From Candidatus Omnitrophota bacterium (GTDB lineage: Bacteria; Omnitrophota; Gorgyraeia; 1-14-0-20-64-10), in NCBI GenBank assembly GCA_023818695.1, contig JAMWCF010000001.1:467306-531305 (forward strand): a stretch of DNA of 64,000 nucleotides, given 5' to 3'. The notes under the pieces are model-generated. The model was given only the letters and a program-made list of their open reading frames with translations, did no database searches and was not told the DNA's origin. Below are positions 9,335-62,574 of this stretch, in pieces. Position numbers and translations under genes: made by a program. Within the stretch, counting starts at the first letter, position 1; the number at the start of each line of letters is the position of its first letter.

Positions 9335-9339
9335 CTGGC

Positions 9340-11324: not shown

Positions 11325-11325
11325 T

Positions 11326-12489: not shown

Positions 12490-12502
12490 CGAATTCCGGC
12501 TT

Positions 12503-13150: not shown

Positions 13151-13177
13151 GGAACTATCCTTTCAGCGGGTTGCCTC

Positions 13178-46748: not shown

Positions 46749-48695
46749 TTATCCGGAAATGGATTCGGTCTCTCCGGCAGATTCTTGTTTTAACTCCGAG
46801 GGAGGCCCTTGCATCACGATCCGCTTCGCTTCGTCCCCGTCGATGACCTCTTTTTCCAAGAGAGTCTCTGCCAGCTTTTCGAGACGGTCTTTGTACTGGG
46901 CGACGATCGCCTTCGCCTGCTTGTGGGCATCCTCGACGATCCGGCGGATCTCCTGGTCGATCAGAACGGCGGTCTGGTCCGAGTAGTTCTTCTCCTCCAC
47001 GATGTCCCGCCCCAGGAAAACCATCCCTTCCCGCCGCCCGTAGGTCAAAGCCCCGAGACTGTCACTCATCCCGTAGCGGGTCACCATCTGGCGCGCCGTC
47101 TCCGTCGCCACCTCCAGGTCGTTCTGGGCGCCGGTGGTGATCTCGCTGAAAATCAGCTCCTCTGCCGCCCGTCCTCCCAGCATGACGGCCAGCTTCGCCA
47201 AAAGCTCCTTGCGGGTGGTGATGTACCGGTCCTCCAGCGGCATCTGCATCGTATAGCCCAGCGCCGCCGCCCCGCGGGGGATGATCGATATCTTGTGGAC
47301 AGGATCGGTCCCCGGTACCATGATCGACACCAGGGCGTGGCCGGCCTCGTGATACGCTACGATCTTCTTCTCATAAGGGGAGATCACGCGGGATTTCCGT
47401 TCCGGTCCGGCCATCACCCGCTCGATCGCCTCCTCCATCTCCTTCATGGTCACCGTCTCCTTGTCCCGGCGGGCGGCCAGCAGGGCCGCCTCGTTGGCCA
47501 GGTTGGCCAGATCCGCTCCGGAGAAACCGGGCGTCTGGCGAGCAATCGATTTCAGGTCGACGGCGGGATCCAGCTTGACCTTCCGGACATGGACCTTTAG
47601 GATCTCCTCCCGGCCGACCAGGTCCGGCCGGTCCACGACGATCTGACGGTCAAACCGGCCGGGCCGCAGAAGAGCCGGATCCAGAACGTCCGGCCGGTTG
47701 GTGGCAGCCAGAAGGATCACCCCCTCCTGGGTGTTGAAGCCATCCATCTCGACCAAAAGGGCGTTGAGGGTTTGCTCCCTTTCATCGTGGCCGCCGCCGA
47801 TGCCGGCAAACCGCTGGCGGCCGACCGCGTCAATCTCGTCAATGAAGATGATGCACCCCCGGGTGGAGGTCTTGGCCGACTTCTTCGCCTGTTCGAAGAG
47901 GTCCCGCACACGGGAAGCCCCCACGCCGACGAACATCTCCACGAAGTCGGAACCGCTGATCGAAAAGAATGGCACCCCCGCCTCCCCGGCCACCGCTTTG
48001 GCCAGCAAGGTTTTCCCGCAGCCAGGCGGACCCAGCAGGAGAACCCCTTTAGGGATCTTCCCTCCCAGCTTCTGGAATTTCTTCGGGTCCTTCAGGAATT
48101 CAATGACCTCCTGGAGCTCCTCCTTGGCCTCCCGGACCCCGGCCACATCCTCGAAAGTGACCTTCTTCCCCTCCTCCTCCGGCAAAACCTCCTTGGCCCG
48201 GCTCTTGCCGAAAGAGAGCAATCGTCCGCCCCCTCCCTGCGCTCCCCGGTAAAGGAGGAACCAGAAGGCGCCGAGGAACAGGAAAGGCCCTGCCAGGTTG
48301 AAAAGGAAATTCAACCAGAAGGACCCTTTGGCCGACTCCACACGGAAATCGGGAACTTTTTCCCTCAAGAGGCGGATCATGTCCGGGTCCTGCTGGGGTA
48401 TCACCACTTCAAAACGCTTGCGGTCGAACGTCTCGCCCCGGATCAGGTTGTCCATCAGAACGACGGTGCGGATCCTCTGGGCGGTGTCGTTGTTGGCAAC
48501 CCAGGAATAGAACTCGCTGTAGGAGATCTCCTGCGGGACCCCCTTCATGGTCAGGGCCCCGAACCAGTACATGTAGAAGAGAACAAAAAAGATCCCCCCA
48601 AACACAAACCACCGGAACATCCTCTGATTCGGTCTGTTCGGAGGAGTCGGCGGTGCGGACGGCAACGGCGTTTTTCCACCTTCAAGTGTCGGCAT
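46749..48695 (-). CDS. ftsH: ATP-dependent zinc metalloprotease FtsH
   Basis: GPPGCGKT Walker A, an AAA second-region-of-homology (SRH) motif, and HEAGHA zinc site. Confidence 0.97.
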
Positions 48696-49315: not shown

Positions 49316-51109
49316 TTATCGGTTCTGTGGGCCGGGGAGGATGCTGAGGAGATAATCCTGGCTGGCGGGCTTAACGAGGAAGCCGTCGGCCCCCATCTCC
49401 TTGGCTTTCTCGCGGTACTCGGGAAAATCGCAGGCGGTGATCAGGAAGACGGGCCTCTCGGGGAAGATTCTCTTTGCCTCCTGAAGAATACCGAAGCCAT
49501 CCGGGGAAACCCCTGTGGATCCGTCGCCCCTGAGGAGGATTTCCGAAAGGATGACATCGGGCTGATGCTCCTTGAGAAGCGCCAACGCTTGCGGCCCGCT
49601 GGTGGCCGTCCAACACGTGATGCCTCGCGCCTCGAAGATGAGGCGTACGGTTTCCAGGGTTTCTTTCTCGGAGTCTACGATCAGGATGCTGGCCGCCGAG
49701 GGGGCTTTCCTTGCTGGCCTGGGAAGTTCATCGGAAATCACCGATGGCCTCGCCGCCTGTGGGGAGGCCGGAAGGTCCGACTGCCGCAGCGGGAACGTGA
49801 GGGTCACGGTGGTGCCAGCCCCCACCTGGCTCTCCACCTGGATCGCCGCATTGTGGGCCCTCAGGATGTTCTGGACGATGGCCAACCCCAGGCCGGAACC
49901 TTTTTCCTTCGTGGTGTAGAACGGGGCGAAGATGAGCGGGATCTGGTTCTCCGGGATGCCGGATCCGGTGTCGCGGACCTTGACGACCAAGGCCTTCTCG
50001 TTGGGGAAGGCAACGATGTCCAGGAGGCCCGGTTTCTCGCCAGGGGGTGACATCGCCTCGATGGCGTTGTTGAACAAGTTCAGGAACACCTGCTTCATCT
50101 GATCCCGGTCTGCCTCGACGGTAACACCGTTGGGGCTGTAGCCCTTTCGCACCTCGATGTGGCTGCGGTCCAGATCGTTCTCCAGCAGGGCCAGCACGCT
50201 GTCGATCGTTCCGCTGATCTCGATCGGCTTGAAGTCCGGCGCCTTGGGTCTGGAATACACCATGAGCTGCCGGACCAGGTCGTTGATCCGCTCCGCCTCC
50301 GCCTGGGCAAGCTTGGCGAAGCGGTTGCGGAAATCCGGGTCATCGTATTTCTCCGGCAGCATCTCGAAGAAGCCAAGGATCGCCTGCAGGGGATTCTTGA
50401 TCTCATGGGCCATGTCGGCGGCGAACTTGCCGATCGTTCCCATCCGCTCGGAGTGGAGCAGCTGATCGCGGGTGTCGCGCAGTTCCTCGTAGGCCTGGGC
50501 GTTCTCGATCGCCCAGGCCGCCTGGGAAGCCAGCGCGGAGAAGATGGCCAGGTCGTCCTGATCGTACAGGTCGCCGGTGAGTTTCTCACCGAGGACGAGG
50601 AAACCCTGCAGCTTGCCCTCCCTGAAACTGGGAACGCAGACGGCGGCCTGCAAGCGTTCCATCTCCCAGAGTGCGCGTTTGAGCGCGGGGATTTCCTTGT
50701 GCTCCTTGCTCCTGGGTCGTCGCTTGGGCTCCGCTGGGTGTTCCTCCTTCAGCTCGTTATAGACGAGCGGTTCCTTGCACTGGGTGAGGAGAGTAACCAG
50801 AGCCGACGACTCCTCGATGCAGAGTTCGCCAACCGGCTTGCGGAATTTGCCGTGGGAGGTGGCGACAGTGAAGCCGGGTTCAGTCTTGTTTCTGAGGAAA
50901 ATCGTGACGTGGGCGGCCCGCGTATTGCTGGCGGTCACCCGGGCGATGAGGTTGAGCAGCCGCGGCAGGTTCCGGATCCGGGTCATCCCGAGGCTAGCGG
51001 CTCTCAAGATTTCCTGGTAGCGCCGCCGCTGCCGGGAGAGTAACCGGTGCCGCAGCCGCCGGCGGAACCGGCGGAGCCGTTGAGTCAGACTGGCCAGAGG
51101 ATGGGGCAC
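49316..51109 (-). CDS. Hybrid sensor histidine kinase: GAF-HisKA-HATPase_c plus a C-terminal receiver-like domain
   Basis: H-box FAADMAHEIKNPL, N-box LFNNAIEAM, G-boxes VRDTGSGIP and GSGLGLAIV. The C-terminal REC-like domain has DVILSEILL where LLD is expected. Confidence 0.9.
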   Translation of the reverse strand: MPHPLASLTQRLRRFRRRLRHRLLSRQRRRYQEILRAASLGMTRIRNLPRLLNLIARVTASNTRAAHVTIFLRNKTEPGFTVATSHGKFRKPVGELCIEESSALVTLLTQCKEPLVYNELKEEHPAEPKRRPRSKEHKEIPALKRALWEMERLQAAVCVPSFREGKLQGFLVLGEKLTGDLYDQDDLAIFSALASQAAWAIENAQAYEELRDTRDQLLHSERMGTIGKFAADMAHEIKNPLQAILGFFEMLPEKYDDPDFRNRFAKLAQAEAERINDLVRQLMVYSRPKAPDFKPIEISGTIDSVLALLENDLDRSHIEVRKGYSPNGVTVEADRDQMKQVFLNLFNNAIEAMSPPGEKPGLLDIVAFPNEKALVVKVRDTGSGIPENQIPLIFAPFYTTKEKGSGLGLAIVQNILRAHNAAIQVESQVGAGTTVTLTFPLRQSDLPASPQAARPSVISDELPRPARKAPSAASILIVDSEKETLETVRLIFEARGITCWTATSGPQALALLKEHQPDVILSEILLRGDGSTGVSPDGFGILQEAKRIFPERPVFLITACDFPEYREKAKEMGADGFLVKPASQDYLLSILPGPQNR

Positions 51110-51509: not shown

Positions 51510-52064
51510 TTAGAGCACAACCGGATTGGTGACGGAGATGAGCTTCGCCACGTGCCGGTTGGCGTTCGAGAGATGGTGGGGCATTGAGGCGTCCAGGTAC
51601 AGAGTGCTGCCCTGGGAGATCCGGTAGCTCTCCTCACCCACCCTCACGTCCACATCGCCCTCCAAACCGAAGAGCCACCGCTCGGTCCCCCTGGGGTATT
51701 GCTCCCTCGCCGTCTTTCCGCCGGGCTGGAGGACAATCATCTGCGGCAGCATGTGCTTCCTGGACACCTGGGTGGTCAGAAGGATCGCAGAGGCCTTCTC
51801 GTCGTAGGTGTAGGTCTGCGCCCCTTGGGCCTTGGATTCCAGATACGCCGCTCCCTGGGGTGGCGCCTCCAGGCCCCGGTACAGCTCCGCCACACTGACC
51901 TTCAGGGCTTCTGCGATCTTCTCGATCGTCCTGGCGTTCCCTCCGCCCTTCCCGTTCTCGATGCGGCTCAAGGAGCCGACAGCGACGCCGCTTCGCCTGG
52001 CCAGCTCCCCTATGGCAAGACCCTGCTCCTTCCTGAGTGCCCGGATGCGGGCTCCGAGATCCAT
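51510..52064 (-). CDS. XRE-family HTH transcriptional regulator with C-terminal cupin domain
   Basis: IRALRKEQGLAIGELARRSGVAVGSLSRIENG HTH, with a cupin-like C-terminus (LYLDASMPHHLSN). Confidence 0.85.
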   Translation of the reverse strand: MDLGARIRALRKEQGLAIGELARRSGVAVGSLSRIENGKGGGNARTIEKIAEALKVSVAELYRGLEAPPQGAAYLESKAQGAQTYTYDEKASAILLTTQVSRKHMLPQMIVLQPGGKTAREQYPRGTERWLFGLEGDVDVRVGEESYRISQGSTLYLDASMPHHLSNANRHVAKLISVTNPVVL

Positions 52065-52622: not shown

Positions 52623-52979
52623 ATGGATCGTCAAATGATGGTGAACCTGATCCGAAACGAGGTGGTCGAGAACCCCAAAGGCAAGACCCGGTTCTGGCTC
52701 GTCCGCTGTTTCGAGATCACCGTGCGCCCCGATCGCGTGGTGGAGCTGGATGAGTATGAGGCGTACGAGGTGTGCGAGGGGAAGAACGGCATCGAGGCCT
52801 GCAGCGACCCCTGCGCTGACCTCCGGAGTCTGGCCGGCATGTTCCACGTCGGCCGCAGCGTGATCCACCTGAACGACGGGCGGGTCATCGAGGAGCCATC
52901 CGGCAGAGGCCTGATCAGCGCCAACGGCAGCCGGCCTGAAGTAAAGCAGCAATCTCGGCCGGCCCCAGTTACCGTTTGA
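52623..52979 (+). CDS. Hypothetical protein (118 aa)
   Basis: Strong SD (GGGAGGGAGGTGAGAG) ending 6 nt before the ATG at 52623. Third positions are strongly G/C in this frame, whereas the overlapping minus-strand ORFs look like antisense artefacts. Confidence 0.65.
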   Translation: MDRQMMVNLIRNEVVENPKGKTRFWLVRCFEITVRPDRVVELDEYEAYEVCEGKNGIEACSDPCADLRSLAGMFHVGRSVIHLNDGRVIEEPSGRGLISANGSRPEVKQQSRPAPVTV

Positions 52980-53790
52980 CCAGGTCGTGCTCCAGGGCCG
53001 TTTGGCGAACCAGCGCCATGAAGGCCTGCAGGTCGCCGTCCTTCCACAGGTTGCCCTGCCATTTCTTGGCCGGCAGCAGGTTCAGCAGCCGATCCTCCTC
53101 AGCGTTGGGGTGCATGTAGAGGATGTAGTCCTTCGGCTGACTCGGGCAGTCCAGCAGTTTGCGGATCGCTTCGCCCGGCTCGTTGACCGTCATGGCGTCC
53201 AGCAGGACGATGTCCGGCTGAAGGGCGGTCATGGCCATGACCGCTTGTTCCACATTCGCGGCGTGTTCCACCTTGTAGACCCCTTTGGCCTGGCTGGCGT
53301 CGCCAAGGTGTCTGAGCAGAATGCTGGCGACCGACTCGAACGGCTCGATGAGCAACAGTAGCGCCAGCGGCTCGCCAGGGGAGGCATCCTGAAGTTTCAT
53401 GCCCATCGTTATCTTCTTCAGTTCATCCTCGTCCTTGCGCGTTAGCAGGCGGTCGGCGAATTCGATCAGCTTGTCGGTGGCAAACGGTTTGGTGAAGAAG
53501 GCGTCGCAGCCCAGGGCCCGTACGGCCCGCTCACGCTCCGGGTAGGCGGTCAGCACGATCACCTTAACCTGAGGGGCTTTGGTTTTCACCCGCTTGAGCA
53601 CCTCTTCGCCCGGCAGGCCCGGCATGTGGAGGTCCAGAATCATGAGGTCGGCCGGCTGCCTCGCCAGGATCGCCAGCGCCTCATCCCCCGAGGCCGCGCG
53701 CTGCACCTGGTAGCCCTTCTCCAGGAAAAACTGGGAGAGCACCGAGGTCAGCCGATCCTCGTCGTCCACCAGCAGAATCCGGAACTCCAT
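52969..53790 (-). CDS. Response regulator: canonical REC plus a second degenerate REC-like domain plus a conserved C-terminal helix (paralog 1, intact)
   Basis: ILLVDDED, LMILDLHMPG, VLTA and FTKP. The second half has LLLIEP...DIVLLDAM. The C-terminus is WQGNLWKDGDLQAFMALVRQTALEHDLVKR. Confidence 0.85.
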   Translation of the reverse strand: MEFRILLVDDEDRLTSVLSQFFLEKGYQVQRAASGDEALAILARQPADLMILDLHMPGLPGEEVLKRVKTKAPQVKVIVLTAYPERERAVRALGCDAFFTKPFATDKLIEFADRLLTRKDEDELKKITMGMKLQDASPGEPLALLLLIEPFESVASILLRHLGDASQAKGVYKVEHAANVEQAVMAMTALQPDIVLLDAMTVNEPGEAIRKLLDCPSQPKDYILYMHPNAEEDRLLNLLPAKKWQGNLWKDGDLQAFMALVRQTALEHDLVKR

Positions 53791-53803: not shown

Positions 53804-54178
53804 CTACGCCTTCGGCCCGCCGAGCTTCTTCATGAATTCCAGGAGCTTCTCGGGCGGGATCGGTTTGATGGGATAGTCGTCCGCTCCCAATTGCTTGGCC
53901 TTGGCCTGCTTCTCCTCATCAGGGAAGCCGGTGATCATGACGACGTGGGCGACGGGGTGGAGCCTCTTGGCCTCCCGGAGGATGCCGAAACCGTCCATGG
54001 GGCTGTTGTTCAGCTGGACGTCCAGCAGCACGAGGTCCGGCTTGTGTTCCGCGACGATCTTCAGAGCCGCGGTGCTCTCGCCGGCCGTCCAGCAGGTGGC
54101 CCCGTTCATCTCGAAGAGCATCTTCACGACGGTGTCGGCCGCGACCTCCTCGTCGTCAACGACCAGTACGCTCGACAT
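53804..54178 (-). CDS. Single-domain response regulator (CheY-like, canonical residues)
   Basis: VLVVDDEE, LVLLDVQL, MITG and IKP. Confidence 0.9.
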   Translation of the reverse strand: MSSVLVVDDEEVAADTVVKMLFEMNGATCWTAGESTAALKIVAEHKPDLVLLDVQLNNSPMDGFGILREAKRLHPVAHVVMITGFPDEEKQAKAKQLGADDYPIKPIPPEKLLEFMKKLGGPKA

Positions 54179-54497
54179 TCGTCATCCTCTGCTCCAAGTA
54201 TCGCAGCAGATCCGCCACCGTCAACAGTTTTTCCGCCTCCTCGTCCGTGATCTCGATACCGAACTGCTCCTCCACCGCCATCACGAGCTCGACGGCGTCC
54301 AGCGAGTCGATACCCAGGTCCTTCACGAAGTCGGCCTGCGGCGTGATGCCGTTGGGATAGACGCCCAGCTGCTTGGTCAGGATGTCATGCACCTTGGGCC
54401 ACAGGCTCGCACGGAAAACGACGGGCGGCTCCGGGACCTTATGCCAGGGCAGCCGCTGGGAGATCCACTGGCCCATCAGCTTAAGTCGCGTCCCCAT
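54156..54497 (-). CDS. Acyl carrier protein-like protein with ~30-aa N-terminal extension
   Basis: DFVKDLGIDSLDAVELVMAVEEQFGIEITDEEA carries the DSL phosphopantetheine-attachment motif. Confidence 0.8.
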   Translation of the reverse strand: MGTRLKLMGQWISQRLPWHKVPEPPVVFRASLWPKVHDILTKQLGVYPNGITPQADFVKDLGIDSLDAVELVMAVEEQFGIEITDEEAEKLLTVADLLRYLEQRMTNVERTGR

Positions 54498-54578: not shown

Positions 54579-55262
54579 TCAGGGGTCGCCGACCCATCGC
54601 TTACCCGGCACGGAGTCCAGCAGGTGCCGGTTCCTGTCGCCGGCATGCATGAAGAAGACATAGTCCCTGGGCTGAGTCTCGCAGGCGAGCAACCGCTGCA
54701 CCACCTCATCGGGATGGTGCTGCGAGGAGAGAAGCGAGAGATCCGCGACCACGAGATGCGGCTTGTGATCCGCCAGGAGTTTGAGGGCGTGCTCGAGCTG
54801 GGCGGTCCTGAGGATGAAGTACATACCTTCCGCCACCAGCGGATCCCGCAGGAGGCGCATCAGCGCGCGGGTGAGCCCGAGGTCCGGCTCCAGGAGCAGG
54901 ACGTCTGCCCTGGGCCACTCCCTCGCCGGCCCGCCGGATTCCGCCAGCCCGGGCAGGATCTGCTGGACTTCCTCGGCGTCTTTCTCGAGCAGGAACATGC
55001 ACATCGCCTCGACCATCGGCTCCCGAGCCAGGGGCTTTGGCAGTAAGCGGTCGCAGCCGACGGCCCGGAGCTCCCGTTCCTGATCCGGCTCAGCACCTAG
55101 CGCCAGGACCTTTGCCAGGGGCGCATCGGCCCGGACCCGCCGGATCAATGTCAAACCGGAGGGGCCTAGCGTCTCCAGATTGAGGACGAGCAGATCCAGC
55201 TTCGCCCAGCTGAGGATCTGCTCGGCTTCCTCCACGCCGACGATCAGGATCTTGAATTCCAA
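54579..55262 (-). CDS. Degenerate REC-pseudoREC protein (paralog 2); reading frame continues past an in-frame TGA to 54504
   Basis: ILIVGVEE and LLVLNLE replace the DD and D sites. It ends ...GKRWVGDP-TGA. The next 24 in-frame codons encode TEESLGTLVQLIGRTALEHRLVVQ, homologous to the paralog C-termini. Confidence 0.75.
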   Translation of the reverse strand: MEFKILIVGVEEAEQILSWAKLDLLVLNLETLGPSGLTLIRRVRADAPLAKVLALGAEPDQERELRAVGCDRLLPKPLAREPMVEAMCMFLLEKDAEEVQQILPGLAESGGPAREWPRADVLLLEPDLGLTRALMRLLRDPLVAEGMYFILRTAQLEHALKLLADHKPHLVVADLSLLSSQHHPDEVVQRLLACETQPRDYVFFMHAGDRNRHLLDSVPGKRWVGDP

Positions 55263-56104
55263 CGGCCCCTCCTACCGTTTGACCAGCCCGTGCTCCAGGG
55301 CCGTCTTGCGGATGAGCTCCCCAGGGTTTCCAGCTCTCTCTCTTTCCAGGGGTTACCCTGCCAATGCTTGAATGAGAGGGTGTTCAAGACCTGCTGCCGC
55401 TCTGGCGGCAGCGGCCTGTGGAAGTAGAACAGGTAGTCCTTCGGCTGATACTCGCAACTCGTGAGTTGCTTGACGGCATCCGCCGGTGCCGGGACGGTCA
55501 GGAGATCCACCATGACCAGATCCGGGCGCATAGCGAAAAGCACTGTCATCGCCTGCGACAGGTCGTCTGCCCAGCTAAAATGATAGGTGCCGTAGCCTCT
55601 GCCCGGTTCGGGGTGACGCAGGAAATAGATGATGGGTGCGGCGATGTCCTTGACCGGTTCCAGGATCAGGATGTCGGCCAGCGGCTCGCCGGGTGAAGCC
55701 TGCTCCAACTCCTCCGGCATGGTGACCGTCTTGAGCTCCTCCTCATCCTTGCGGGTGAGCAGCGAATCCACTGTGCGGACCAGGCGCTCCATGGCGAATG
55801 GCTTCTGGACGAAGGCGTCGTAGCCGAGGGGTTTCACCTCGTTCTCCCGCTCGGGGAAGGCGGTCACGACGACCACCCGGGTCTGGGGCGCCTTCGCGCG
55901 GATGTGCCTCAGGACATCCGCCCCGGAGAGGCCCGGCATCTGCAGGTCCAGCAGCACCAAGTCCGCCGGCTGCCGGTCGAAGGCCTCCACCGCCTCCTCC
56001 CCGGAGAGCGCCTGCGACACCAGATAACCCTTCTCGAAGAAGATCTCCGTCAGCGTCGAGACGAGACTCTCCTCATCGTCCACCACCAGAATCCGGAACT
56101 CCAT
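55244..56104 (-). CDS. Response regulator REC plus pseudoREC (paralog 3), C-terminus apparently frameshifted
   Basis: ILVVDDEE, LVLLDLQMPG, VVTA and VQKP. After ...WKERELETLG the conserved tail ELIRKTALEHGLVKR-stop (stop at 55272) lies in another frame. Confidence 0.8.
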   Translation of the reverse strand: MEFRILVVDDEESLVSTLTEIFFEKGYLVSQALSGEEAVEAFDRQPADLVLLDLQMPGLSGADVLRHIRAKAPQTRVVVVTAFPERENEVKPLGYDAFVQKPFAMERLVRTVDSLLTRKDEEELKTVTMPEELEQASPGEPLADILILEPVKDIAAPIIYFLRHPEPGRGYGTYHFSWADDLSQAMTVLFAMRPDLVMVDLLTVPAPADAVKQLTSCEYQPKDYLFYFHRPLPPERQQVLNTLSFKHWQGNPWKERELETLGSSSARRPWSTGWSNGRRGRWNSRS

Positions 56105-56500
56105 CTACCCTCCCTTCTTCTTCCGCTCCAGCTCCAGGGCCCCCTCCTGGATCTTCGCCAGGATCTGCTCCATCGGCATCGGCTTGACCAGGTAGTCCCG
56201 GGCGCCTAAGGCCACCGCCTTGTCCCGGAACTCTTGGTCGTCGAACCCGGTGAAGATGTAAACCATCAGGTCCGGGTTCGCCGCCTTGGCCTCCCGGAAC
56301 ACCCGGAACCCGCTCATGTCCGGCAGATCGAGGTTCAGCAGCATCATGTCCGGGCGCTCCTTCTGGGCCAGGGCGATCCCCTCGGCCCCCTTCAGGGCCG
56401 TCACCACATCGAACCCGCCGTAGTCCCGGAACAGCATCTCGACCGTCTGGGCGGTGTCCGGCTCGTTCTCCACGATCAGGATCTTGATCTTATGCGGCAT
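56105..56500 (-). CDS. Single-domain pseudo-receiver (phospho-acceptor Asp replaced by Asn)
   Basis: ILIVENEP and DMMLLNLDLPDMSG align to DD and LLD-L-P-M-G. IFTG and VKP are retained. Confidence 0.8.
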   Translation of the reverse strand: MPHKIKILIVENEPDTAQTVEMLFRDYGGFDVVTALKGAEGIALAQKERPDMMLLNLDLPDMSGFRVFREAKAANPDLMVYIFTGFDDQEFRDKAVALGARDYLVKPMPMEQILAKIQEGALELERKKKGG

Positions 56501-58739
56501 GGCTCGCCTTGTCCTCTTTCAGGGCTGGCAACTGGATGGTGCAGCGGGTCCCCTTGCCGTACTCCGACTCCATGAAAATCCGCCCGCCGTGGGCCATGAG
56601 AATCCGCTTGATGTAGAAAAGCCCCAGCCCATGACCACCGGGCCCCATCCCCTGAGAGGATCCCTTCGTCGTAAAGAGTGGCACAAAAATCTTCTTCTTC
56701 TTGTCCGGCTCTTTGATTCCGATCCCGTTGTCCTCGACGGTGATGATGACTTTGCCGTTCTCCTCCTGCGCCTTCACCACCACCCGCCCGTGGTAGGGCT
56801 CCGGCGGTTCGGGCAGCGCCTTCAGCCGCATCTTGCGGATCCGCTCCTCGACGGCGTCCACCGCGTTGTCGATCACGTTCATGATCGAGTCGTGGATCTG
56901 CGCCGAGTTGCAGGAGATCCTCGGCAGGTTGGTGGAAATCCCGTTGACGATCTCCGGCACCTCCGCCTCCTCCACCACCTTGCCGCGGGCGTGTTTGAAG
57001 CGCACAAACTCGATGGCATCCTGGACCATCGGCAAGATCTCCGCCTGCTGGAACTCGGCCGGGATCGTCTTTGCCAGGCTCATGACTCCCTTGGCGATCT
57101 CGCCGGCCCGGGCGCACTCCTTGCGGATCGACTCGAAGGCCCGCAAAACCCGCGTCAGTCTGGTCAGGTCGAACTCCCCCTTCTTGAGAACCTGCCCCAG
57201 CCAAGACATCGCCTGCCAGCAGAGGTTCTCGATCACCTGGATCCGGTTGCTGTATTGGTGCGAGACGGCGCCGGAAATGTCCAGGGCCATCTGGTCGCGC
57301 TCCCGCTCGACCACCTTTTGCTCCTCCGCCTCGTGAAACCGGGCGTTCTCGATGGCCAGCGCCGCCTGGTTGGCCAGCACCATGAGGAGGTTCAGGTCAT
57401 CCTGCGTCCAGATCCGGCCCGCGCGCTTGTCGCCCAACACGAGGAACCCCAGGAACCGGCGCTGGTGGAAGGCCGGGATCATCACGGAGGCCTTGAACAA
57501 GTCCATCTCCCGGGCCATCTCCCGCCAGTTGGCCGAGAGGGCTTGCTGGTGCAGCCGCAATTCCTCCTTGACTCGTGGGATCCTGACCGTGGAGAGATCC
57601 TTGGCCAGGGTCGAAGTAGCCGCCAGAGCGTCCGGCAGAAAGGAATCCTTCCGGGGTGGGTGATAGCGGCTGGCCTTCTGCCGGTACCGGCCGTCATTGC
57701 CTTCCATCAGGTAGATTGCTGCATGCGAGATGTTCAGGACTGTGACGAGCCGGCGGACGATCTGTTTCAGCAGCGTTTTCTCCCGAAGGAACCGCATCAT
57801 GTCCTGCGAGATGAACCTGAGGTCCTCGTGGGCCTTGTGCTCCTCGGCGAGGAGAAGATTCTCGGTTCTCTTCTGGAAGTACTGGTTGACGTAATGGGCC
57901 GCTGTAGTAAAGATAGCGCATGCAAACCATAACCCTACCCACCAGTTGACTCCGAATGCCTGCTCGAGCTTCGGACGCCATTCAAGAGCGACGAGGAGAG
58001 GCAAGCCCAAAGTGAAAGCATAGACCAGCGCAAAAACCCATGTGCGCCTGATGGCCAAGTTGATGTCCATGAGGCGATGCCGCGTGATGGCGTAGAAAAT
58101 TACGGAGAAAGAAGCCAGGATAAAGAAAGCGCCAATGGGATAGAAATTCATGCCGTAGTTGATGAGGAACTCGATTGCGGAACAACAGAAGAGGATAAAT
58201 GCTATCCACGTAAATTTGGCTTGATTGTGCTTGGTGGCCGTTCTTTGCCCGGAACCTGCCCTCACGGCTACAGTCAGCATCCAAAGGAGGCGCCCAAGCG
58301 TTGCAGCAACGAATAGAACGAGAAGAGGGTGAAGAAACCCGGCCTTCCCATATATTCCCCAGCTGAAAGTATGGTAACCGTCGACGATAAGATCGGTACT
58401 CCACAAGAGAAGGAAAAACAAACCGCTGAAGGTGTAGAGAATCCTCACCACTCGCCCGTCTCGGAGGCGCCATCGGTCCAAGAAATGAGTGACGAAGTGA
58501 AGCGCCGTTACCGGCAAAACAACGATGGATGAGAAGGCAACCCTGACTATTAGTTGCTGCTGTGGGTCTGTAACCAAGAAGTAAGATGCGAACCAGCAGG
58601 CCTGCCAGATGAAGAATTCCAAACACATCAGGGCAAATGTTCGGTTGGATGGGGAATAGCGATTTCGGCTGAAAACCAGGAAAGTGAGGAAGAGGGCTGT
58701 TAGACTTGTGGCGAGTGGCGGGAGAACGTAAAAGGACAT
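56490..58739 (-). CDS. Membrane sensor histidine kinase: N-terminal 7-TM domain, GAF, DHp, HATPase_c
   Basis: About seven hydrophobic helices in the first ~290 aa. GAF region (FLGFLVLGDKRAGRIWTQDDLNLLMVLANQAALAIENA). N-box NVIDNAVDA and G-boxes VEDNGIGI and GLGLFYIKRIL. The H-box is atypical (AVSHQYSN). Confidence 0.88.
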   Translation of the reverse strand: MSFYVLPPLATSLTALFLTFLVFSRNRYSPSNRTFALMCLEFFIWQACWFASYFLVTDPQQQLIVRVAFSSIVVLPVTALHFVTHFLDRWRLRDGRVVRILYTFSGLFFLLLWSTDLIVDGYHTFSWGIYGKAGFLHPLLVLFVAATLGRLLWMLTVAVRAGSGQRTATKHNQAKFTWIAFILFCCSAIEFLINYGMNFYPIGAFFILASFSVIFYAITRHRLMDINLAIRRTWVFALVYAFTLGLPLLVALEWRPKLEQAFGVNWWVGLWFACAIFTTAAHYVNQYFQKRTENLLLAEEHKAHEDLRFISQDMMRFLREKTLLKQIVRRLVTVLNISHAAIYLMEGNDGRYRQKASRYHPPRKDSFLPDALAATSTLAKDLSTVRIPRVKEELRLHQQALSANWREMAREMDLFKASVMIPAFHQRRFLGFLVLGDKRAGRIWTQDDLNLLMVLANQAALAIENARFHEAEEQKVVERERDQMALDISGAVSHQYSNRIQVIENLCWQAMSWLGQVLKKGEFDLTRLTRVLRAFESIRKECARAGEIAKGVMSLAKTIPAEFQQAEILPMVQDAIEFVRFKHARGKVVEEAEVPEIVNGISTNLPRISCNSAQIHDSIMNVIDNAVDAVEERIRKMRLKALPEPPEPYHGRVVVKAQEENGKVIITVEDNGIGIKEPDKKKKIFVPLFTTKGSSQGMGPGGHGLGLFYIKRILMAHGGRIFMESEYGKGTRCTIQLPALKEDKASHAA

Positions 58740-58786: not shown

Positions 58787-58942
58787 TCAATACCGTAGTA
58801 CCATTCCACCCATAGTAAATTCCGCTCCATAGGCCAATGCAAAAACCGTGTCGACTCGTTTAATCCTGCCCTCCCGAGCTGCCTCATCCAAATAGACCGG
58901 CATCTCTGCCGACACGAGGTTACCGTATTTCGAGGGCGAATT
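58787..58942 (-). pseudogene. Remnant of a second KAS III-like gene (C-terminal ~50 codons only)
   Basis: In frame directly after the TAA at 58943-58945: NSPSKYGNLVSAEMPVYLDEAAREGRIKRVDTVFALAYGAEFTMGGMVLRY-stop. This parallels the upstream gene's FSRYGNLVSAELPVLLDENMRAGRIKRGQLVLMFTYGAGFTSACAVVRL. Confidence 0.7.
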
Positions 58943-60298
58943 TTAAAGCCTGACTACTGCACAGGCACTGGTGAACCCCGCACCATATGTGAACATGAGC
59001 ACTAGTTGCCCCCGTTTAATTCGACCGGCGCGCATGTTCTCGTCCAACAAGACGGGAAGTTCTGCCGACACGAGATTTCCGTAGCGGGAGAAGTTTTCCA
59101 CCACCTTGTTCTGAGGTACTCCTAAAAGGCCGAGGGAGTACTCAAACAAGAACTTGCTCGGGTAATGCAGAAGGAAGACGTCTATGTCACCGATGGAAAC
59201 CCGTGCTTTCCGAAGCGTCCTGTTAACAAAGGGGATCAGGTGTCGGTCCATTACTTGAAAGAACTCTTCCCGGGCCGGGTTCATGTAGAAATAGCCTTTG
59301 TATTCGTCAGGAATTCCCGGTGGGGTGACGGTCCACGGCAGAGGAGCAAAAATGTGTGTTCCGTATTCCCCTCTGTTCCATAGTTCGCAGGCGAGGATGT
59401 CGCCCTCGCCTGAGGAATCCGCTTCGAGCAGAATGCCACCCGCTCCGTCTCCAAAAATAGCCCTGTGCATCAAGCTTTTAAACGGAAGAGACGAACCTAC
59501 TGTGCTAGCGGCGAGAACCAGAATCGCTTTGTGCCCACCCGCGATGTATCGGCGTGCGATGTCCACCGCACAAAGCCACCCAGAACAAGACATGTTAATC
59601 TCGAAGGCTGGGCAGTGTGCCCCGATCCTGACTTGTACCGTACTTCCCACATCGGGGGCTACTGCATCTCCGGGATTCACTGCACAAATGATCATGTCTA
59701 TGGTCGAGGGGTGCCGTTTCGCCTTGGTCAGGATCGCCTTGGCCACTTCGGCCATCATGCTTGAAGCATTTTGGCCTGGCTGTACGCTCCGCCTCTCAAT
59801 AGCCCCCAACGCACGCTGAATAGTTAAATCTGTGGATTTCAGTCCGTTTGCAATGATGTGGTCGTTCGTTACAATCTTATCGGGAAGAAAGCTGGCGGTG
59901 TGCGCTATCCTTGCAGTTACAGTGCGCCGACCAAAATCCCGCGTGTCCGCCGGGCCACGCGCACCCATAACGAGTTTCGCCACGATGTCTGATCCCGATT
60001 CGAGTATCCGGGAGAACTGGATTCCAGTGAGGTACCCGGAGGCAAAATTCTCAGAAGGTATACCGTTCACGTGATATTGCCAAACAACCACGCCCTCGGC
60101 TTCCACAATCTGAGTGGGGCTGGTTTGTATTTTAAGATTGAGATAACTCTCCTTCGGGAGACTTCTGGGGAGAATGGCGCTTACGCCCCCTTGGCTGAGG
60201 TCCCAAGTAGTGCCCGAACAAGGCTTCTCTGGTGCGCCCTTAAAGACACACGTAACCGGCAGTGCCGTTTTTACTCGACCGACGTGGCGACGTTCCAT
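58943..60298 (-). CDS. PilZ domain fused to a 3-oxoacyl-ACP synthase III (FabH/KAS III-like) domain
   Basis: N-terminal RRHVGR (RxxxR) and DLSQGG (DxSxxG) with ...VVVWQ...GIQF. The C-terminal ~330 aa is thiolase-fold with a candidate Cys-His-Asn triad (NMSCSGW, LLHYPSK, YGNLVSAE). Confidence 0.8.
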   Translation of the reverse strand: MERRHVGRVKTALPVTCVFKGAPEKPCSGTTWDLSQGGVSAILPRSLPKESYLNLKIQTSPTQIVEAEGVVVWQYHVNGIPSENFASGYLTGIQFSRILESGSDIVAKLVMGARGPADTRDFGRRTVTARIAHTASFLPDKIVTNDHIIANGLKSTDLTIQRALGAIERRSVQPGQNASSMMAEVAKAILTKAKRHPSTIDMIICAVNPGDAVAPDVGSTVQVRIGAHCPAFEINMSCSGWLCAVDIARRYIAGGHKAILVLAASTVGSSLPFKSLMHRAIFGDGAGGILLEADSSGEGDILACELWNRGEYGTHIFAPLPWTVTPPGIPDEYKGYFYMNPAREEFFQVMDRHLIPFVNRTLRKARVSIGDIDVFLLHYPSKFLFEYSLGLLGVPQNKVVENFSRYGNLVSAELPVLLDENMRAGRIKRGQLVLMFTYGAGFTSACAVVRL

Positions 60299-60304
60299 TC
60301 TGTT

Positions 60305-60568
60305 CTACCCCGGTTTGTTGCCGCTTAAGTGCCGCTGCAAGAAGTCGATAGTATCTTGGACGGTCACCAGCCTCATGGCTTCATCATCTGGAATTTTGAT
60401 GCCGAACGCTTCCTCTAATTTCATCACCAGCTCAATCCGCTGAAGGGAGTCCGCTCCCAGGTCCTCTGCGATTTTTTTCTCTGGAAGTACTTCTTCCACC
60501 TTAACCTTCAATTCTTCCGAGAGGGTCACTCTGGCCTTCTCGGCTATTTGAGAGGCAGTTAGCACCAT
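60305..60568 (-). CDS. Acyl carrier protein
   Basis: EDLGADSLQRIELVMKLEEAFGIKIPDDEA (DSL motif); 87 aa. Ends 6 nt before the PilZ-KASIII start. Confidence 0.88.
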   Translation of the reverse strand: MVLTASQIAEKARVTLSEELKVKVEEVLPEKKIAEDLGADSLQRIELVMKLEEAFGIKIPDDEAMRLVTVQDTIDFLQRHLSGNKPG

Positions 60569-60630: not shown

Positions 60631-60654
60631 AAAAACGGCCGGACACATCCGGCC
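60631..60654 (-). terminator. Rho-independent terminator after the HTH gene
   Basis: Minus strand reads GGCCGGA-TGTG-TCCGGCC followed by GTTTTTGCTCTTT, starting 2 nt after the TGA stop. Confidence 0.7.
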
Positions 60655-60656
60655 AC

Positions 60657-60935
60657 TCATGAGTTCTGTCCTCTCTTGGACTTTTTCAGGCGCTTCTTTG
60701 CGGTCAACCCGCTTGCTTTGGTGTAGGTTTTATCGAGAAACTGGTCCACCGCCCGTCGCACCGCCCGGCTCTTTGGCGACCTACCGTACTTGAGCCAACG
60801 GTAGACGGACATCGAATGGACACCGATCTCATGGCCCAGCTCATCGTAGCTAAGCCCTCGGCGCTTTTTGATTTCCCGAAGTTTTTCGATCTGATCGACT
60901 GACACATTATGGGAGTGTAGCAAAAGCATACACAA
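60657..60935 (-). CDS. Small HTH DNA-binding protein (XRE or transposase-OrfA-like)
   Basis: RRGLSYDELGHEIGVHSMSVYRWLKYG helix-turn-helix with a basic C-terminus. Lies adjacent to the IS end. Confidence 0.7.
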   Translation of the reverse strand: MCMLLLHSHNVSVDQIEKLREIKKRRGLSYDELGHEIGVHSMSVYRWLKYGRSPKSRAVRRAVDQFLDKTYTKASGLTAKKRLKKSKRGQNS

Positions 60936-60957
60936 AAGTCAAACTTTCTCAGTCTCG

Positions 60958-61501: not shown

Positions 61502-61515
61502 TTATTCCCGTCGAA
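61502..61515. repeat. Flanking direct repeat (target-site-duplication-like), right copy; equals the tilS 3' end
   Basis: ttattcccgtcgaa abuts the IS end. Its reverse complement is TTCGACGGGAATAA, the last tilS codons plus TAA. Confidence 0.6.
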
Positions 61516-62527
61516 GAACCAGCCGGCCTTTCGGATCAATCTCCGCCCGGAACCGATGCGGCAGGTCTAGGGGGCCCTTCCTCTTGCCATCCGCCAGATG
61601 ATTCAGAGAAACCCAATGGCGGTGCCGGAAACCGCTGCGGTCCCCCTGCAAACGGGCTACCCCGTGGCGCAGGATCCCCATCCGCAGGCCGGCCGGAACC
61701 GACAGGAGGGCCCTCCTGTCGAAGTGGACTGCCCCGGAACCCACGCGGGCACTCCTTTTAAACTGCCGGGCCGCCTCCTCCTGCAGCCAGCCGAAATCCT
61801 CCCGCACGATATCGGCCAGCTGTGCTAGATGGTACCGCAGGGATCCGCTGTACCGGCGCTCCAGAAAAGGGATCAGCTCCCGGCGGACCCTGTTCCTGAA
61901 GAACCGAGTCGACCGGTTCGACCGGTCTTCCCTCGGCCGGATTTTCCTCTCTTTCAAAAAGTTCGCAATCTCTTTTTTCGTCGAGCTGATCATCGGCCGG
62001 ATAATCCGCAGTCCCCTCGAATGGCCGTTGTTCTGCCCGTTGACGGACCTCACCGGCGGAATCCCCATCAACCCGGTCGTCCCGGTCCCCCGAAGCAGCC
62101 ACATCAGCACCGTCTCCGCCTGATCGTCCAGGGTGTGCCCCACGGCGATCACCCGGCACCTTGTGCGCCTAGCCAGCGCCGTGAGGGCCTCGTACCTAGC
62201 CCGGCGGGCCGTCTCTTCCGGAGAAATCCCCGGCTGCTTCTTGACCCTCCGACGCAGAACAGTCACCGGAATTCCAAGCCGCTTGCCAAGGGAGCGGACG
62301 AATCGCTCTTCCCTTTTCGCGGCCGACGGGCGCAGCCCGTGGTTCACATAAGCGGCGGCGAGGGAGAGCCGCAGCACCCCCCTTAACTCCGAGAGGAGAA
62401 TCAGCAAGGCGGTCGAATCCGGCCCGCCGGAAACCGCCGCCAGAACCCTCTCTCTGGGCTTGAGCATCTCAAACCGTTCGATCGTTGCCCTGACTTTCTC
62501 GATCAGCATAGCTCCATCATAGGCCAA
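61502..62527 (-). CDS. tilS: tRNA(Ile)-lysidine synthase
   Basis: PP-loop [11 protein letters not shown]; 341 aa. Confidence 0.9.
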
Positions 62528-62574
62528 AAAAAATCGGTTGGATATATAGACAATTGTCTGCTATTCTATCTTCC

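Follow-up and report, generated by a model that had tools for sequence, protein, structure and literature searches.

A PilZ domain fused to a non-FabH KAS III in a kinase-linked locus of Omnitrophota: a candidate signal-switched condensing enzyme

The stretch of DNA analysed here (the window; 64,000 nucleotides of contig JAMWCF010000001.1 from a Candidatus Omnitrophota bacterium) encodes a 451-aa protein which, judged from its sequence, consists of a PilZ domain and a non-FabH KAS III with a complete catalytic triad, joined by a flexible linker, and which on balance probably forms a signal-switched 'mini' fatty-acyl/polyketide synthase. The most conserved neighbour of its gene is a 7TM-GAF histidine kinase encoded downstream, missed in the original prediction, and this linkage changes the picture from an enzyme with an acyl carrier protein (ACP) to an enzyme within a two-component signalling operon, the KAS III, kinase and receiver genes usually forming one apparent operon. 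In the proposed mechanism the KAS III would catalyse a priming Claisen condensation on a dedicated ACP, committing carbon to a special lipid-like product, and c-di-GMP binding by the N-terminal PilZ domain would switch this condensation on or off allosterically; the adjacent kinase/receiver system would belong to the same circuit, with condensing enzymes as signalling outputs. Within this scheme we infer c-di-GMP binding by the PilZ-KAS III, the direction of its regulation, its substrates, its product and the fate of that product. The original prediction had read the protein as a condensing enzyme carrying a PilZ domain, and none of the in silico tests that could have overturned this interpretation (HMM matches, triad columns, family rarity) went against it.

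The 451-aa ORF (58943..60298, minus strand) is present exactly as first described (ORF listing), and inspection of the reading frame leaves its ATG as the sole possible start because the stop-to-stop frame opens 2 codons upstream. The features of the locus are collected in Table 1. The PilZ, KAS III and ACP assignments rest on matches to profiles and structures whose strength lies well beyond chance, and are no coincidence of motifs. The linker is predicted to be disordered (pLDDT <50 for residues 115-125 in the AF2 model), and at its position the family alignment shows an insertion of 0-40 residues.

Table 1. Features of the PilZ-KAS III locus, with positions in the window
Feature	Position	Strand	Evidence
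Hybrid GAF-HisKA-HATPase-REC kinase; island edge, membership uncertain	49316..51109	-	Pfam
HTH (XRE)-cupin regulator	51510..52064	-	HTH_3 50 bits, Cupin_2 37 bits
Receiver with C-terminal region outside named families	52969..53790	-	PF00072 99.2 bits
Stand-alone receiver protein	53804..54178	-	PF00072 76.1 bits
ACP2, GIDSL, amid receiver genes	54156..54497	-	PF00550 58.6 bits; TIGR00517 88.9 bits
Degenerate receiver-domain protein, paralogue of both proteins with REC and C-terminal region	54579..55262	-	PF00072 32 bits
Receiver domain with ~150-aa C-terminal region outside named families	55244..56104	-	PF00072 92.2 bits, residues 5-112 only
Stand-alone response-regulator receiver protein	56105..56500	-	PF00072 83.7 bits
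HisKA_7TM-GAF-HATPase_c sensor histidine kinase	56490..58739	-	Pfam
51-codon relic of P0007-type PilZ-KAS III C-terminus	58790..58942	-	In frame, directly 3' of stop codon
KAS III (FabH-fold) domain, residues 126-451 and stop	58943..59923	-	PF08545, PF08541, PDB alignments, Foldseek
Interdomain linker (residues 114-125), flexible	59924..59959	-	Low pLDDT and length variation among relatives
PilZ domain (residues 1-113)	59960..60298	-	PF07238, family conservation, PDB profile matches, AF2 and Foldseek
ACP1, 87 aa, GADSL phosphopantetheine site	60305..60568	-	PF00550 50.7 bits; TIGR00517 78.8 vs cutoff 70.45
Terminator-like hairpin, 11-bp stem (6 GC) and T-run, just 3' of HTH gene	60633..60658	-	Pattern match only
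Small HTH (XRE-like) regulator gene, 5' of ACP1	60657..60935	-	Pfam HTH_31/HTH_3, below cutoffs

A PilZ domain had been proposed for residues 1-110 and was recovered with Pfam (PF07238 over residues 3-100; score 30.0 bits, gathering cutoff 22.5, E 7e-7), a match that is also precomputed for most family members. The signatures on which that proposal was built are R4-x3-R8 (RHVGR), a canonical RxxxR, and D33-L-S35-Q-G-G38, a DxSxxG whose first residue lies 25 after R8 and so within the 20-30 expected of the type, whilst W73, G92 and F95 of the proposed VVVW...GIQF segment are invariant among 33 family members. Across the 33 full-length members R4 and R8 are conserved at a level of at least 90% and G38 is invariant, all three being invariant in the PilZ-only subset (19 sequences), and the pair of motifs occurs in 23 of 24 unique long N-termini. 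Of the unique locus proteins 18/24 keep the strict Ser of DxSxxG, as do 32/49 of the database proteins; in roughly one quarter to one third of the fused proteins it gives way to T, H, N, G or C, and some of the proteins so altered may not bind c-di-GMP, which counts against the signal-switched synthase reading. An AF2 model of residues 1-116 (pLDDT 88.9) bore out the PilZ fold of a six-stranded beta-barrel and a C-terminal helix, with strands predicted over residues 14-98 and the helix at about 100-113, and the best 48 PDB matches of the model (Foldseek) were all PilZ domains, mostly c-di-GMP-bound structures. When the family PilZ profile was searched against the PDB it matched YpfA/MotI, CeSA, Alg44 and YcgR with the motifs aligned, RxxxR falling on RRQYVR of MotI/YpfA.

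The PilZ domain of the 451-aa protein is therefore placed by us, as a prediction, in the canonical c-di-GMP-receptor type, for which we infer binding. A different role, that of a non-binding protein-protein adaptor like the Xanthomonas PilZ, docking for example the KAS III to the kinase or a receiver, seems distinctly improbable: non-binding PilZ domains exist, XC1028-type structures were also among the PDB matches of the family profile, the DxSxxG Ser varies in part of the family and no diguanylate cyclase is seen in the window, but both motifs of the 451-aa protein are canonical and correctly spaced, the conservation of R4, R8 and G38 is not expected for a non-binding domain, and the closest structural matches are c-di-GMP complexes.

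The KAS III domain was likewise found with Pfam (PF08545, 46.6 bits; PF08541, 78.2 bits), and the suspected triad of C238 (MSCSGW), H378 (LLHYPS) and N408 (YGNLVSAE) falls on the C112/H244/N274 columns of FabH in phmmer alignments with three solved FabH structures. Column statistics showed C238, H378 and N408 to be invariant throughout the family, together with the clade signatures H-x-P-S381 and an invariant E413 beside the Asn loop. In Foldseek the domain superposes on E. coli FabH with a TM of 0.9 at 28% identity, and its scores against the curated FabH models of NCBIfam fall below their cutoffs (NF006829, 188.2 vs 249; TIGR00747, 165.9 vs 292.1).

Residues by which FabH contacts its substrates are substituted clade-wide in the column statistics (W32, R36, R151, N247 and R249). 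R249, reportedly the centre of the basic ACP-docking patch of FabH, is present in 41/51 generic FabHs; the 451-aa protein has F383 and most of the clade Pro. Of the others, W32 and R151 form the CoA adenine stack and R36 and N247 make phosphopantetheine contacts in FabH (PMC4606726). Their positions hold T159 (W in 48/51 generic FabHs), L276 (R in 45/51), A163 (R in 37/51) and S381 (N in 46/51), respectively. Since it has lost the CoA-adenine clamp, the KAS III probably accepts ACP-bound substrates and not acyl-CoA, and the non-FabH specificity first suspected from the His context is upheld by the family-wide HxPS and the loss of the CoA- and ACP-contact residues.

We rejected a housekeeping FabH to which a PilZ domain was added, with c-di-GMP tuning bulk fatty-acid initiation, as very unlikely indeed. 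The closest family and structure matches are FabH, the triad is complete and small Omnitrophota genomes may hold a single KAS III; however, both score cutoffs are missed, the contact residues listed above are gone, and the window holds no fab cluster around the gene, whose neighbours are an ACP and the kinase. Moreover, the gene is xenologously replaceable, it is missing in almost every sequenced species, and its clade relatives accompany a KS/CLF set or glycosyltransferases. A second reading of the enzyme, as an acyltransferase or chain-joining enzyme (CerJ/ChlB-, DpsC-, CorB/MxnB- or OleA-like) with the two ACPs of the window as substrates, appears quite unlikely. It would suit the loss of CoA-binding residues, the Ser in place of N247, the invariant E413 by the Asn loop and the two ACP genes of the cassette, and CerJ, ChlB3, CorB, '4v2p ketosynthase' and DpsC are among the PDB sequence matches, but these score 36-87 bits vs 100-127 bits for FabHs, the full Cys-His-Asn triad is a condensing configuration, and ACP2 occurs only in the window and L001 lineages.

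The original prediction gave the PilZ-KAS III its own ACP, and this stands for the window, in which the stop codon (TAG) of ACP1, with its GADSL site, is followed after 6 nt by the ATG of the 451-aa gene (junction sequence). As a general rule it did not hold: only 8/19 unique fused loci have an ACP on the upstream side and a P0008/P0010 subclade is without one, so that the ACP was rejected as the defining partner. The ACP of the closest relative (L111) may be truncated. The kinase-RR-ACP order in which ACP2 is found occurs also in L001.

The neighbour that does recur is the kinase. A 7TM kinase lies within 400 nt of the KAS gene in 27/32 unique close-KAS loci vs 5/38 more-distant KAS genes, and in the close loci it follows immediately downstream with a median gap of 23 nt; the linkage was seen again in independent gene tables. 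A receiver gene is found 3' of the kinase in six further loci (L001, L003, L005, L045, L065 and L080), and the HTH-cupin regulator, which closes the cassette at its distal side, recurs as homologues at the cassette ends of L005, L065 and L080. Two negative results from the window weigh against the signal-switched synthase reading, namely that it contains neither product-defining genes for a KS, CLF, ketoreductase, dehydratase, thioesterase or exporter nor, over its full 64 kb, any ORF with a GGDEF or HD-GYP motif.

The relic directly behind the 451-aa gene has 46/51 residues identical with the C-terminus of P0007, compared with 28/51 for the C-terminus of the 451-aa protein itself. Locus L110 aligns at 79.5% nt across the relic, the spacer and the start of the kinase (window 58930-57727), and the relic is missing from L111 and L112. 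On comparison of these sequences the relic is taken as the scar of a gene replacement, in which the synthase was apparently swapped for a 45%-identical allele and the old kinase was kept. Retention of the old kinase speaks against the signal-switched synthase reading, and with the synthase replaced in this way the two need not be a co-adapted pair. An assembly chimera is an unlikely source of the relic, since a k-mer join gives a seamless hybrid and not a whole gene with a duplicated C-terminal fragment. Low GC was rejected as an import marker, as the stretch of 0.50-0.55 GC (57.8-61.0 kb) includes the 7TM region of the resident kinase, which is common to L110.

The family comprises ~50 clusters at 90% identity, and the PilZ-KAS III fusion was found in 2/185,579 species genomes, with ~6 fused-length clusters among 1.84 billion 50%-identity representatives. 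It is thus rare in databases and, as had been surmised, no common annotated family, the source annotation reading only 'PilZ domain-containing protein'. The architecture also appears to be undescribed, as the original prediction had supposed: two PilZ censuses record partners of the glycosyltransferase, GGDEF, EAL and chemoreceptor types and name no acyl, ketoacyl or thiolase partners, and the architecture was not found in literature on PilZ with ketoacyl/FabH, HisKA_7TM ligands, KAS III with a sensor kinase or Omnitrophota PilZ. The KAS III clade comes from bacteria of Omnitrophota, Elusimicrobiota and similar groups that have not been cultured, and the physiology of Omnitrophota and their relatives is almost entirely unexplored.

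The defining genomic feature of the clade is the 7TM-GAF histidine kinase with receiver proteins directly downstream. PilZ was rejected for this role in the kinase-linked clade, as short unfused forms interleave with fused ones in a rough NJ tree; P0035 and P0059 carry other N-terminal domains. With its patchy distribution in this clade, PilZ is an accessory to the KAS-kinase unit rather than essential, and this patchiness is a further point against the signal-switched synthase reading. The input domains differ by subclade, with PilZ on the KAS III in one and, in an unfused sister subclade in which KS, CLF, ACP and KAS III adjoin the kinase, a receiver domain on the inactive CLF-like partner. 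The set of KS, catalytically dead CLF-like partner and ACP is confined to seven loci (L080, L065, L059, L009, L074, L090 and L063); in L065 a protein that joins REC to ketoacyl-synt (100 bits for Response_reg) is encoded immediately 5' of ACP-KS-KAS III-kinase. The KS of these unfused relatives retains Cys-His-His, whilst the REC-fused KS-like partner is without all three.

HD-GYP and solo PilZ genes occur within the cassettes of L001, L005 and L080, and in L001 LolA-like and MacB/FtsX ABC genes sit between KAS and kinase, a hint of export. A kinase-less sister clade adjoins glycosyltransferases and a methyltransferase, neighbours that suggest structural glycolipid synthesis. Two further accounts of the locus were considered. 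In the first, the PilZ-KAS III and ACP would make a hydrophobic, fatty-acid-derived signal sensed by the 7TM or GAF domain of the adjacent kinase, as in an autoinducer-type, quorum-sensing-like pair of the CqsA/CqsS or RpfF/RpfC/RpfG kind, and c-di-GMP would control the output of signal; this account, which narrows down the signal-switched synthase reading, is rather unlikely. It would account for the tight, conserved adjacency of synthase and kinase with tiny gaps, for a 7TM membrane domain without assigned ligand, for the Rpf-like arrangement of L005, L080 and L001, with REC proteins and HD-GYP phosphodiesterases encoded downstream, and for the exporter and LolA-like genes of L001; KAS III-family enzymes also make signals elsewhere, and the PDB matches include PqsD and PqsBC. 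Against it, the swap of a 45%-identical synthase with the kinase kept is unexpected of a co-specific pair unless the product is the same family-wide, and REC on the CLF-like subunit points to a synthase downstream of the kinase, although feedback would be compatible with this. Extended to the cassette as a whole, namely a new cell-cell or self-signalling system of Omnitrophota and Elusimicrobiota with a KAS III/ACP lipid signal, a 7TM-GAF kinase receptor and gating by PilZ/c-di-GMP in one lineage and by phosphorylation of the REC on the CLF-like subunit in another, the claim is decidedly doubtful; were it true, the signal synthase would carry a modular plug-in input, in a loop that ties lipid signalling to two-component and c-di-GMP control.

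The choice of primer, and with it the type of chain, lies with KAS III enzymes, as is established from FabH biology. The second account, membrane remodelling, builds on this: the 7TM kinase would sense the physical or chemical state of the membrane by DesK-type logic and the KAS III would alter the starter units or acyl make-up of membrane or envelope lipids, with c-di-GMP as a lifestyle input (sessile vs free). The kinase is polytopic, the neighbours of the kinase-less sister clade fit, and the LolA-like and ABC genes of L001 could traffic an envelope lipid, but the dedicated ACP(s), and the KS/CLF in relatives, are typical of dedicated secondary lipid pathways and not of bulk membrane synthesis, no PlsX/Y/C-like acyltransferase is linked and the family is rare and patchy, so that we regard it as rather unlikely.

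The closest known systems each match the locus in part. With E. coli FabH (PDB 1EBL/1HN9) the 451-aa protein has in common the thiolase/KAS III fold, the Cys-His-Asn triad columns and, likely, Claisen condensation with an ACP-borne extender; it differs in the N-terminal PilZ, the fixed H-x-P-S and E413, and in the setting of its gene, next to a dedicated ACP gene and a sensor-kinase gene and outside a fab operon. Known PilZ-fused enzymes control polysaccharide secretion; beyond these, PilZ is described as acting on motors, chemoreceptors, transcription factors and the enzymes of c-di-GMP turnover themselves. The cellulose synthase BcsA and the alginate co-polymerase Alg44 likewise hold a canonical PilZ in one polypeptide with a biosynthetic module, their c-di-GMP-bound PilZ domains are among the structural matches of the 451-aa protein's PilZ, and the same logic would be expected, second-messenger binding licensing a committed biosynthetic step. 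The step differs, however, being polysaccharide polymerisation there and a proposed carbon-carbon condensation on an ACP here, and the PilZ here is N-terminal on a flexible linker rather than C-terminal and packed against the gating loop of a glycosyltransferase. With PilZ on a KAS III, the making of carbon-carbon bonds in biosynthesis of lipid or polyketide type would come under the direct control of c-di-GMP, and the comparison with REC on the CLF-like subunit suggests that bacterial signalling can act on condensing enzymes directly and post-translationally, as its outputs. The small system of an ACP, one enzyme and c-di-GMP suits direct in vitro work.

The Rpf/DSF (RpfF-RpfC-RpfG, the last REC-HD-GYP), CqsA/CqsS and LqsA/LqsS (alpha-hydroxyketone) systems share with the locus a biosynthetic enzyme beside a polytopic kinase and receivers, and Rpf also the HD-GYP c-di-GMP phosphodiesterases seen in several family cassettes, a likeness drawn from the general background on these systems and from PMC3376566. 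The enzyme here is a KAS III, in contrast to a crotonase (RpfF) or a PLP-dependent acyltransferase (CqsA/LqsA), and Pfam and NCBIfam gave KAS III/thiolase-type families only for the 451-aa protein, none of CqsA/LqsA or RpfF type; c-di-GMP would, moreover, act on the synthase itself. Pairing with HisKA_7TM, an orphan sensor class, offers a concrete candidate, open to experiment, for the input or the target of such kinases. Of the type II PKS/aryl-polyene minimal set, KS-alpha, CLF, ACP and KAS III are all present in the unfused sister subclade, whereas the window has ACP(s) and KAS III only; the relatives also differ in the receiver domain of their CLF-like subunit and in the joining of the set to a two-component system, for neither of which was a description found in the literature. 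PqsD/PqsBC (Pseudomonas quinolone signal) and DarB/StlD similarly divert a KAS III fold to signalling or secondary lipids, but are much more distant than FabH (PqsD 94-98 bits and PqsC ~50 bits in the PDB search; DarB/StlD models weak NCBIfam matches to the 451-aa protein) and are without a PilZ domain or kinase neighbour.

At the upstream edge of the locus a mobile element was sought, and the ORFs at 60704-61339 and 62566-62991 had no Pfam matches. The small HTH regulator has a homologue at the equivalent position in L027, L035, L045, L047 and L105 (probe scores 67-115). The hairpin that follows its gene is one of a number of terminator-like sites whose count in the region is not above shuffle expectation; from this pattern match, ACP-PilZ-KAS is predicted to begin a separate transcript.

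PilZ-KAS, the 451-aa protein of the window, joins a PilZ domain (residues 1-113) through a short linker (114-125) to a KAS III domain (126-451). The ORF listing and the junction sequence (...GGG TAG aacaga ATG...) bore out the predicted ORFs and their sizes, with 6 nt separating the stop codon of the upstream ACP gene from the PilZ-KAS ATG, which is the sole possible start codon. The upstream product (ACP1), predicted to be a dedicated carrier protein with a GADSL site, matched both PP-binding and TIGR00517 above cutoff and is, from its sequence, a bona fide ACP. At NCBI a protein identical to PilZ-KAS, encoded on a 697-kb contig, is named ‘MAG: PilZ domain-containing protein [Candidatus Omnitrophica bacterium]’.

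Positions of the features discussed (window coordinates unless a locus or PilZ-KAS residues are named)
Feature	Position	Strand	Details
folP	45873..46715		
ftsH	46749..48695	(-)	
Receiver paralogue	52969-53790	(-)	N-terminal receiver, ~150-aa C-terminal region
ACP2, AcpP-like	54156..54497	(-)	TIGR00517 88.9 bits
Receiver paralogue	54579-55262	(-)	N-terminal receiver, ~150-aa C-terminal region
Receiver paralogue	55244-56104	(-)	N-terminal receiver, ~150-aa C-terminal region
HisKA_7TM-GAF-HATPase_c kinase	56490..58739		Next gene downstream of PilZ-KAS; Pfam
KAS III C-terminus relic	58790..58942	(-)	51 codons, in frame directly after PilZ-KAS stop
PilZ-KAS ORF	58943..60298	(-)	451 aa
PilZ (PF07238)	PilZ-KAS residues 3-100		30.0 bits, cutoff 22.5 (Pfam)
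ACP_syn_III	PilZ-KAS residues 232-306		46.6 bits, cutoff 24 (Pfam)
ACP_syn_III_C	PilZ-KAS residues 362-450		78.2 bits, cutoff 26.6 (Pfam)
ACP1 ORF	60305..60568	(-)	87 aa; PP-binding 50.7 bits; TIGR00517 78.8 bits, cutoff 70.45; GADSL site
tilS	61502..62527	(-)	
REC-fused CLF-like subunit	L065 6900-8501; L059 1979-3610; L090 6937-8490		N-terminal Response_reg 100 bits, ketoacyl-synt 64 bits
Sister-clade locus	L072 9944-15245 (and related Acidobacteriota/Hydrogenedentota loci)		KAS III, then GT1/GT28-like glycosyltransferase, GT2 glycosyltransferase, methyltransferase

The two PilZ signatures originally read at the N-terminus, R4-x3-R8 and D33-x-S35-x-x-G38, are intact and canonical in order and spacing, and PF07238 matched above its cutoff. 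When 33 full-length members of the family were aligned, G38, W73, G92 and F95 proved invariant and R4 and R8 at least 90% conserved, the two arginines being invariant as well in the PilZ-only subset (n = 19 sequences). Among the 24 unique long N-termini encoded at genomic loci, 23 had both motifs, 18 of these with the strict Ser. A profile of the family N-terminus searched against the PDB retrieved MotI/YpfA, cellulose synthase, Alg44, YcgR, PP4397 and BcsA, all experimentally studied PilZ domains whose motifs lined up with those of the family. The AF2 model of residues 1-116 (pLDDT 88.9) comprised a beta-barrel and a C-terminal helix, and its top 48 Foldseek matches in the PDB were exclusively PilZ domains, the majority solved with c-di-GMP bound, in agreement with the HMM assignment of the N-terminal ~110 aa.

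In the KAS III domain, phmmer alignments to solved FabHs placed C238, H378 and N408 on the FabH C112/H244/N274 columns, as expected of the proposed Cys-His-Asn triad, and none of the three varies among 24 PilZ-fused and 18 unfused members of the clade. The model of the whole protein (pLDDT 87.5, linker 115-125 disordered) superposed on E. coli FabH with a TM of 0.9, and a structure search with it found no solved chain spanning both domains. Judged by motifs and models, the PilZ and KAS III domains both look functional. The suspicion of a non-FabH specificity was also strengthened. With scores of 188 and 166, PilZ-KAS missed the curated FabH cutoffs of 249 and 292, respectively, and five FabH positions were replaced when compared with 51 generic FabHs, using an E. 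coli sequence whose triad contexts match the PDB alignments. R249, reportedly the centre of the FabH ACP-docking patch (R in 41/51), is F383 here and Pro in most of the clade. W32 (W in 48/51) and R151 (R in 45/51), which stack on the CoA adenine, are T159 and L276, and the phosphopantetheine contacts R36 (R in 37/51) and N247 (N in 46/51) are A163 and S381 (PMC4606726). An H-x-P-S motif and a Glu at the FabH S279 position (E413) are fixed across the clade. Although fold and triad are shared with FabH, the sequence is not that of an ordinary FabH, and a housekeeping FabH with an added PilZ domain is, beside these replacements, a highly improbable reading. Priming by a simple acyl-CoA bound FabH-style is improbable, and ACP-bound substrates are plausible.

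The family is rare and undescribed. A word-indexed search gave ~45 clusters (90% identity) carrying PF07238, PF08545 and PF08541, at 36-85% identity and in all cases of metagenome or MAG origin. When 1.84 billion representatives at 50% identity were searched exhaustively, only ~7 clusters exceeded 350 bits, ~6 of which had the length of the fusion; below these, scores dropped to 120-150 bits, as for generic FabHs. Only 2 of 185,579 species-representative genomes encoded the fusion, both of them MAGs, one from Elusimicrobia and one carrying the label Planctomycetia. In two published PilZ censuses the common partners are glycosyltransferase, GGDEF, EAL and chemoreceptor domains, with zero occurrences of acyl, ketoacyl, FabH or thiolase, and we found no description of a PilZ-KAS III architecture in the literature.

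The conserved partner of PilZ-KAS is a sensor kinase. Around 110 loci were probed with the window's own proteins, counting unique loci with at least 700 nt downstream: a 7TM kinase lay within 400 nt of close KAS genes (probe score ≥296) in 27 of 32 loci, vs 5 of 38 for more distant ones (<296), with a median KAS-kinase gap of 23 nt. Five close loci were exceptions: L001, where the kinase lies 4.6 kb downstream past inserted LolA-like and MacB/FtsX exporter genes; L005, where it is adjacent according to Pfam and was missed by the probe; and three sister-clade loci. Gene tables of distant family members also have the same kinase directly following the KAS gene. The KAS gene belongs to a conserved, apparent operon with a two-component system. 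The proposed dedicated ACP neighbour held for the window's lineage and failed as a family rule, with an ACP gene upstream in no more than 8 of the 19 unique fused loci. In L111, an 85%-identical relative, the upstream ACP is recognisable over its C-terminal half alone, without the DSL region (1-330), which could reflect a truncated ACP or a short-metagenomic-contig artefact. The two papers found to mention HisKA_7TM report no ligand for it. L024 and L093, one from a MAG labelled Patescibacteria group, represent a KAS III lineage at greater distance (probe scores 232-243), again with a weak HisKA_7TM match after the KAS gene, and the pairing may predate the present clade or extend beyond it.

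Downstream of the kinase, the window encodes five receiver-domain proteins, ACP2, an HTH-cupin regulator and a hybrid kinase. None of the five receiver proteins has a DNA-binding output domain; the C-terminal region of the three paralogues has no Pfam match and is possibly a degenerate second receiver. ACP2 sits among the response-regulator genes, an unusual site for an ACP, its 3' end overlapping the start of the next receiver gene, and the kinase-RR-ACP order recurs in L001 (16544-16810). Between PilZ-KAS and the kinase, L001, from a 60%-identical relative, carries LolA-like (TP_0789-like) genes, a MacB/FtsX permease, an ABC ATPase and a 389-aa unknown (9304-13945), which suggests that a lipid product is exported or trafficked.

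All kinase-linked KAS III genes fell in one clade of a rough NJ tree, with PilZ-fused and short forms interleaved. Two of its members, P0035 (488 aa) and P0059 (452 aa), have other N-terminal extensions in place of PilZ, one that weakly matches LuxD-like Acyl_transf_2 (20.7 bits) and one that is a signal-peptide-like hydrophobic N-terminus. In one monophyletic subclade without the fusion, the genes run KS-like - ACP - KS - KAS III - kinase; the KS keeps Cys-His-His and its KS-like partner lacks all three, which makes them a CLF-type pair. Directly upstream of ACP-KS-KAS III-7TM kinase in L065, L059 and L090, the catalytically dead CLF-like subunit is itself fused to a receiver (REC) domain, a REC-KS architecture of which we found no description in the literature. 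One lineage would therefore place a c-di-GMP receptor on KAS III and the other a phospho-receiver on the KS partner, and no other observation argues as strongly for condensing machinery as a direct output of signalling. The overall picture goes beyond that first proposed, to a rare family in which condensing enzymes fused to signal domains go together with an orphan class of sensor kinase. Cassettes of L001, L005 and L080 also contain HD-GYP phosphodiesterase and solo PilZ genes. A kinase-less sister clade (Acidobacteriota, Hydrogenedentota and others) has the same non-FabH residue set (HQPS, E at FabH S279, without W32/R151) and adjoins glycosyltransferases and a methyltransferase, not fab genes; such loci may encode an uncharacterised glycolipid pathway.

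PilZ-KAS would be a variant of two known kinds, PilZ-regulated enzymes and KAS III enzymes diverted from fatty-acid synthesis. We somewhat favour a mechanism in which c-di-GMP binding to PilZ would allosterically switch the condensation that primes synthesis of a dedicated lipid or polyketide-like product. This product would either feed back on the neighbouring 7TM kinase, an Rpf/Cqs-like reading that we consider rather unlikely, or remodel the envelope, which appears similarly doubtful. As far as computation can test, the original observation and its interpretation stand.

The relic downstream of PilZ-KAS matched the C-terminus of P0007, a family protein only 45% identical overall to PilZ-KAS, at 46/51 positions vs 28/51 for the C-terminus of PilZ-KAS itself, with YGAGFT decayed to YGAEFT. 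L110, the P0007 contig (ACP-PilZ-KAS-kinase), aligned with window positions 58930-57727 at 79.5% nt identity over relic, spacer and kinase start, with no alignment past the present PilZ-KAS stop codon. The relic is absent from the closest relatives, L111 and L112 (67% aa identity), where the kinase starts at or overlaps the KAS stop, and the homology of L111 to the window stops at 58940. The relic, the L110 match and the relic-free L111 and L112 together indicate that the window is a recombinant. We infer a xenologous replacement, in which an ACP-PilZ-KAS segment of the type of family protein P0002 displaced most of a resident P0007-type gene while leaving the resident kinase in place. The tilS and ftsH-folP-pdxJ genes are often neighbours in bacteria; here a ~13-kb signalling island lies between them, holding an HTH gene, ACP1, PilZ-KAS, the kinase, receivers, ACP2, HTH-cupin and hybrid kinase, and GC is 0.50-0.55 across 57.8-61.0 kb vs ~0.62-0.66 on the flanks.
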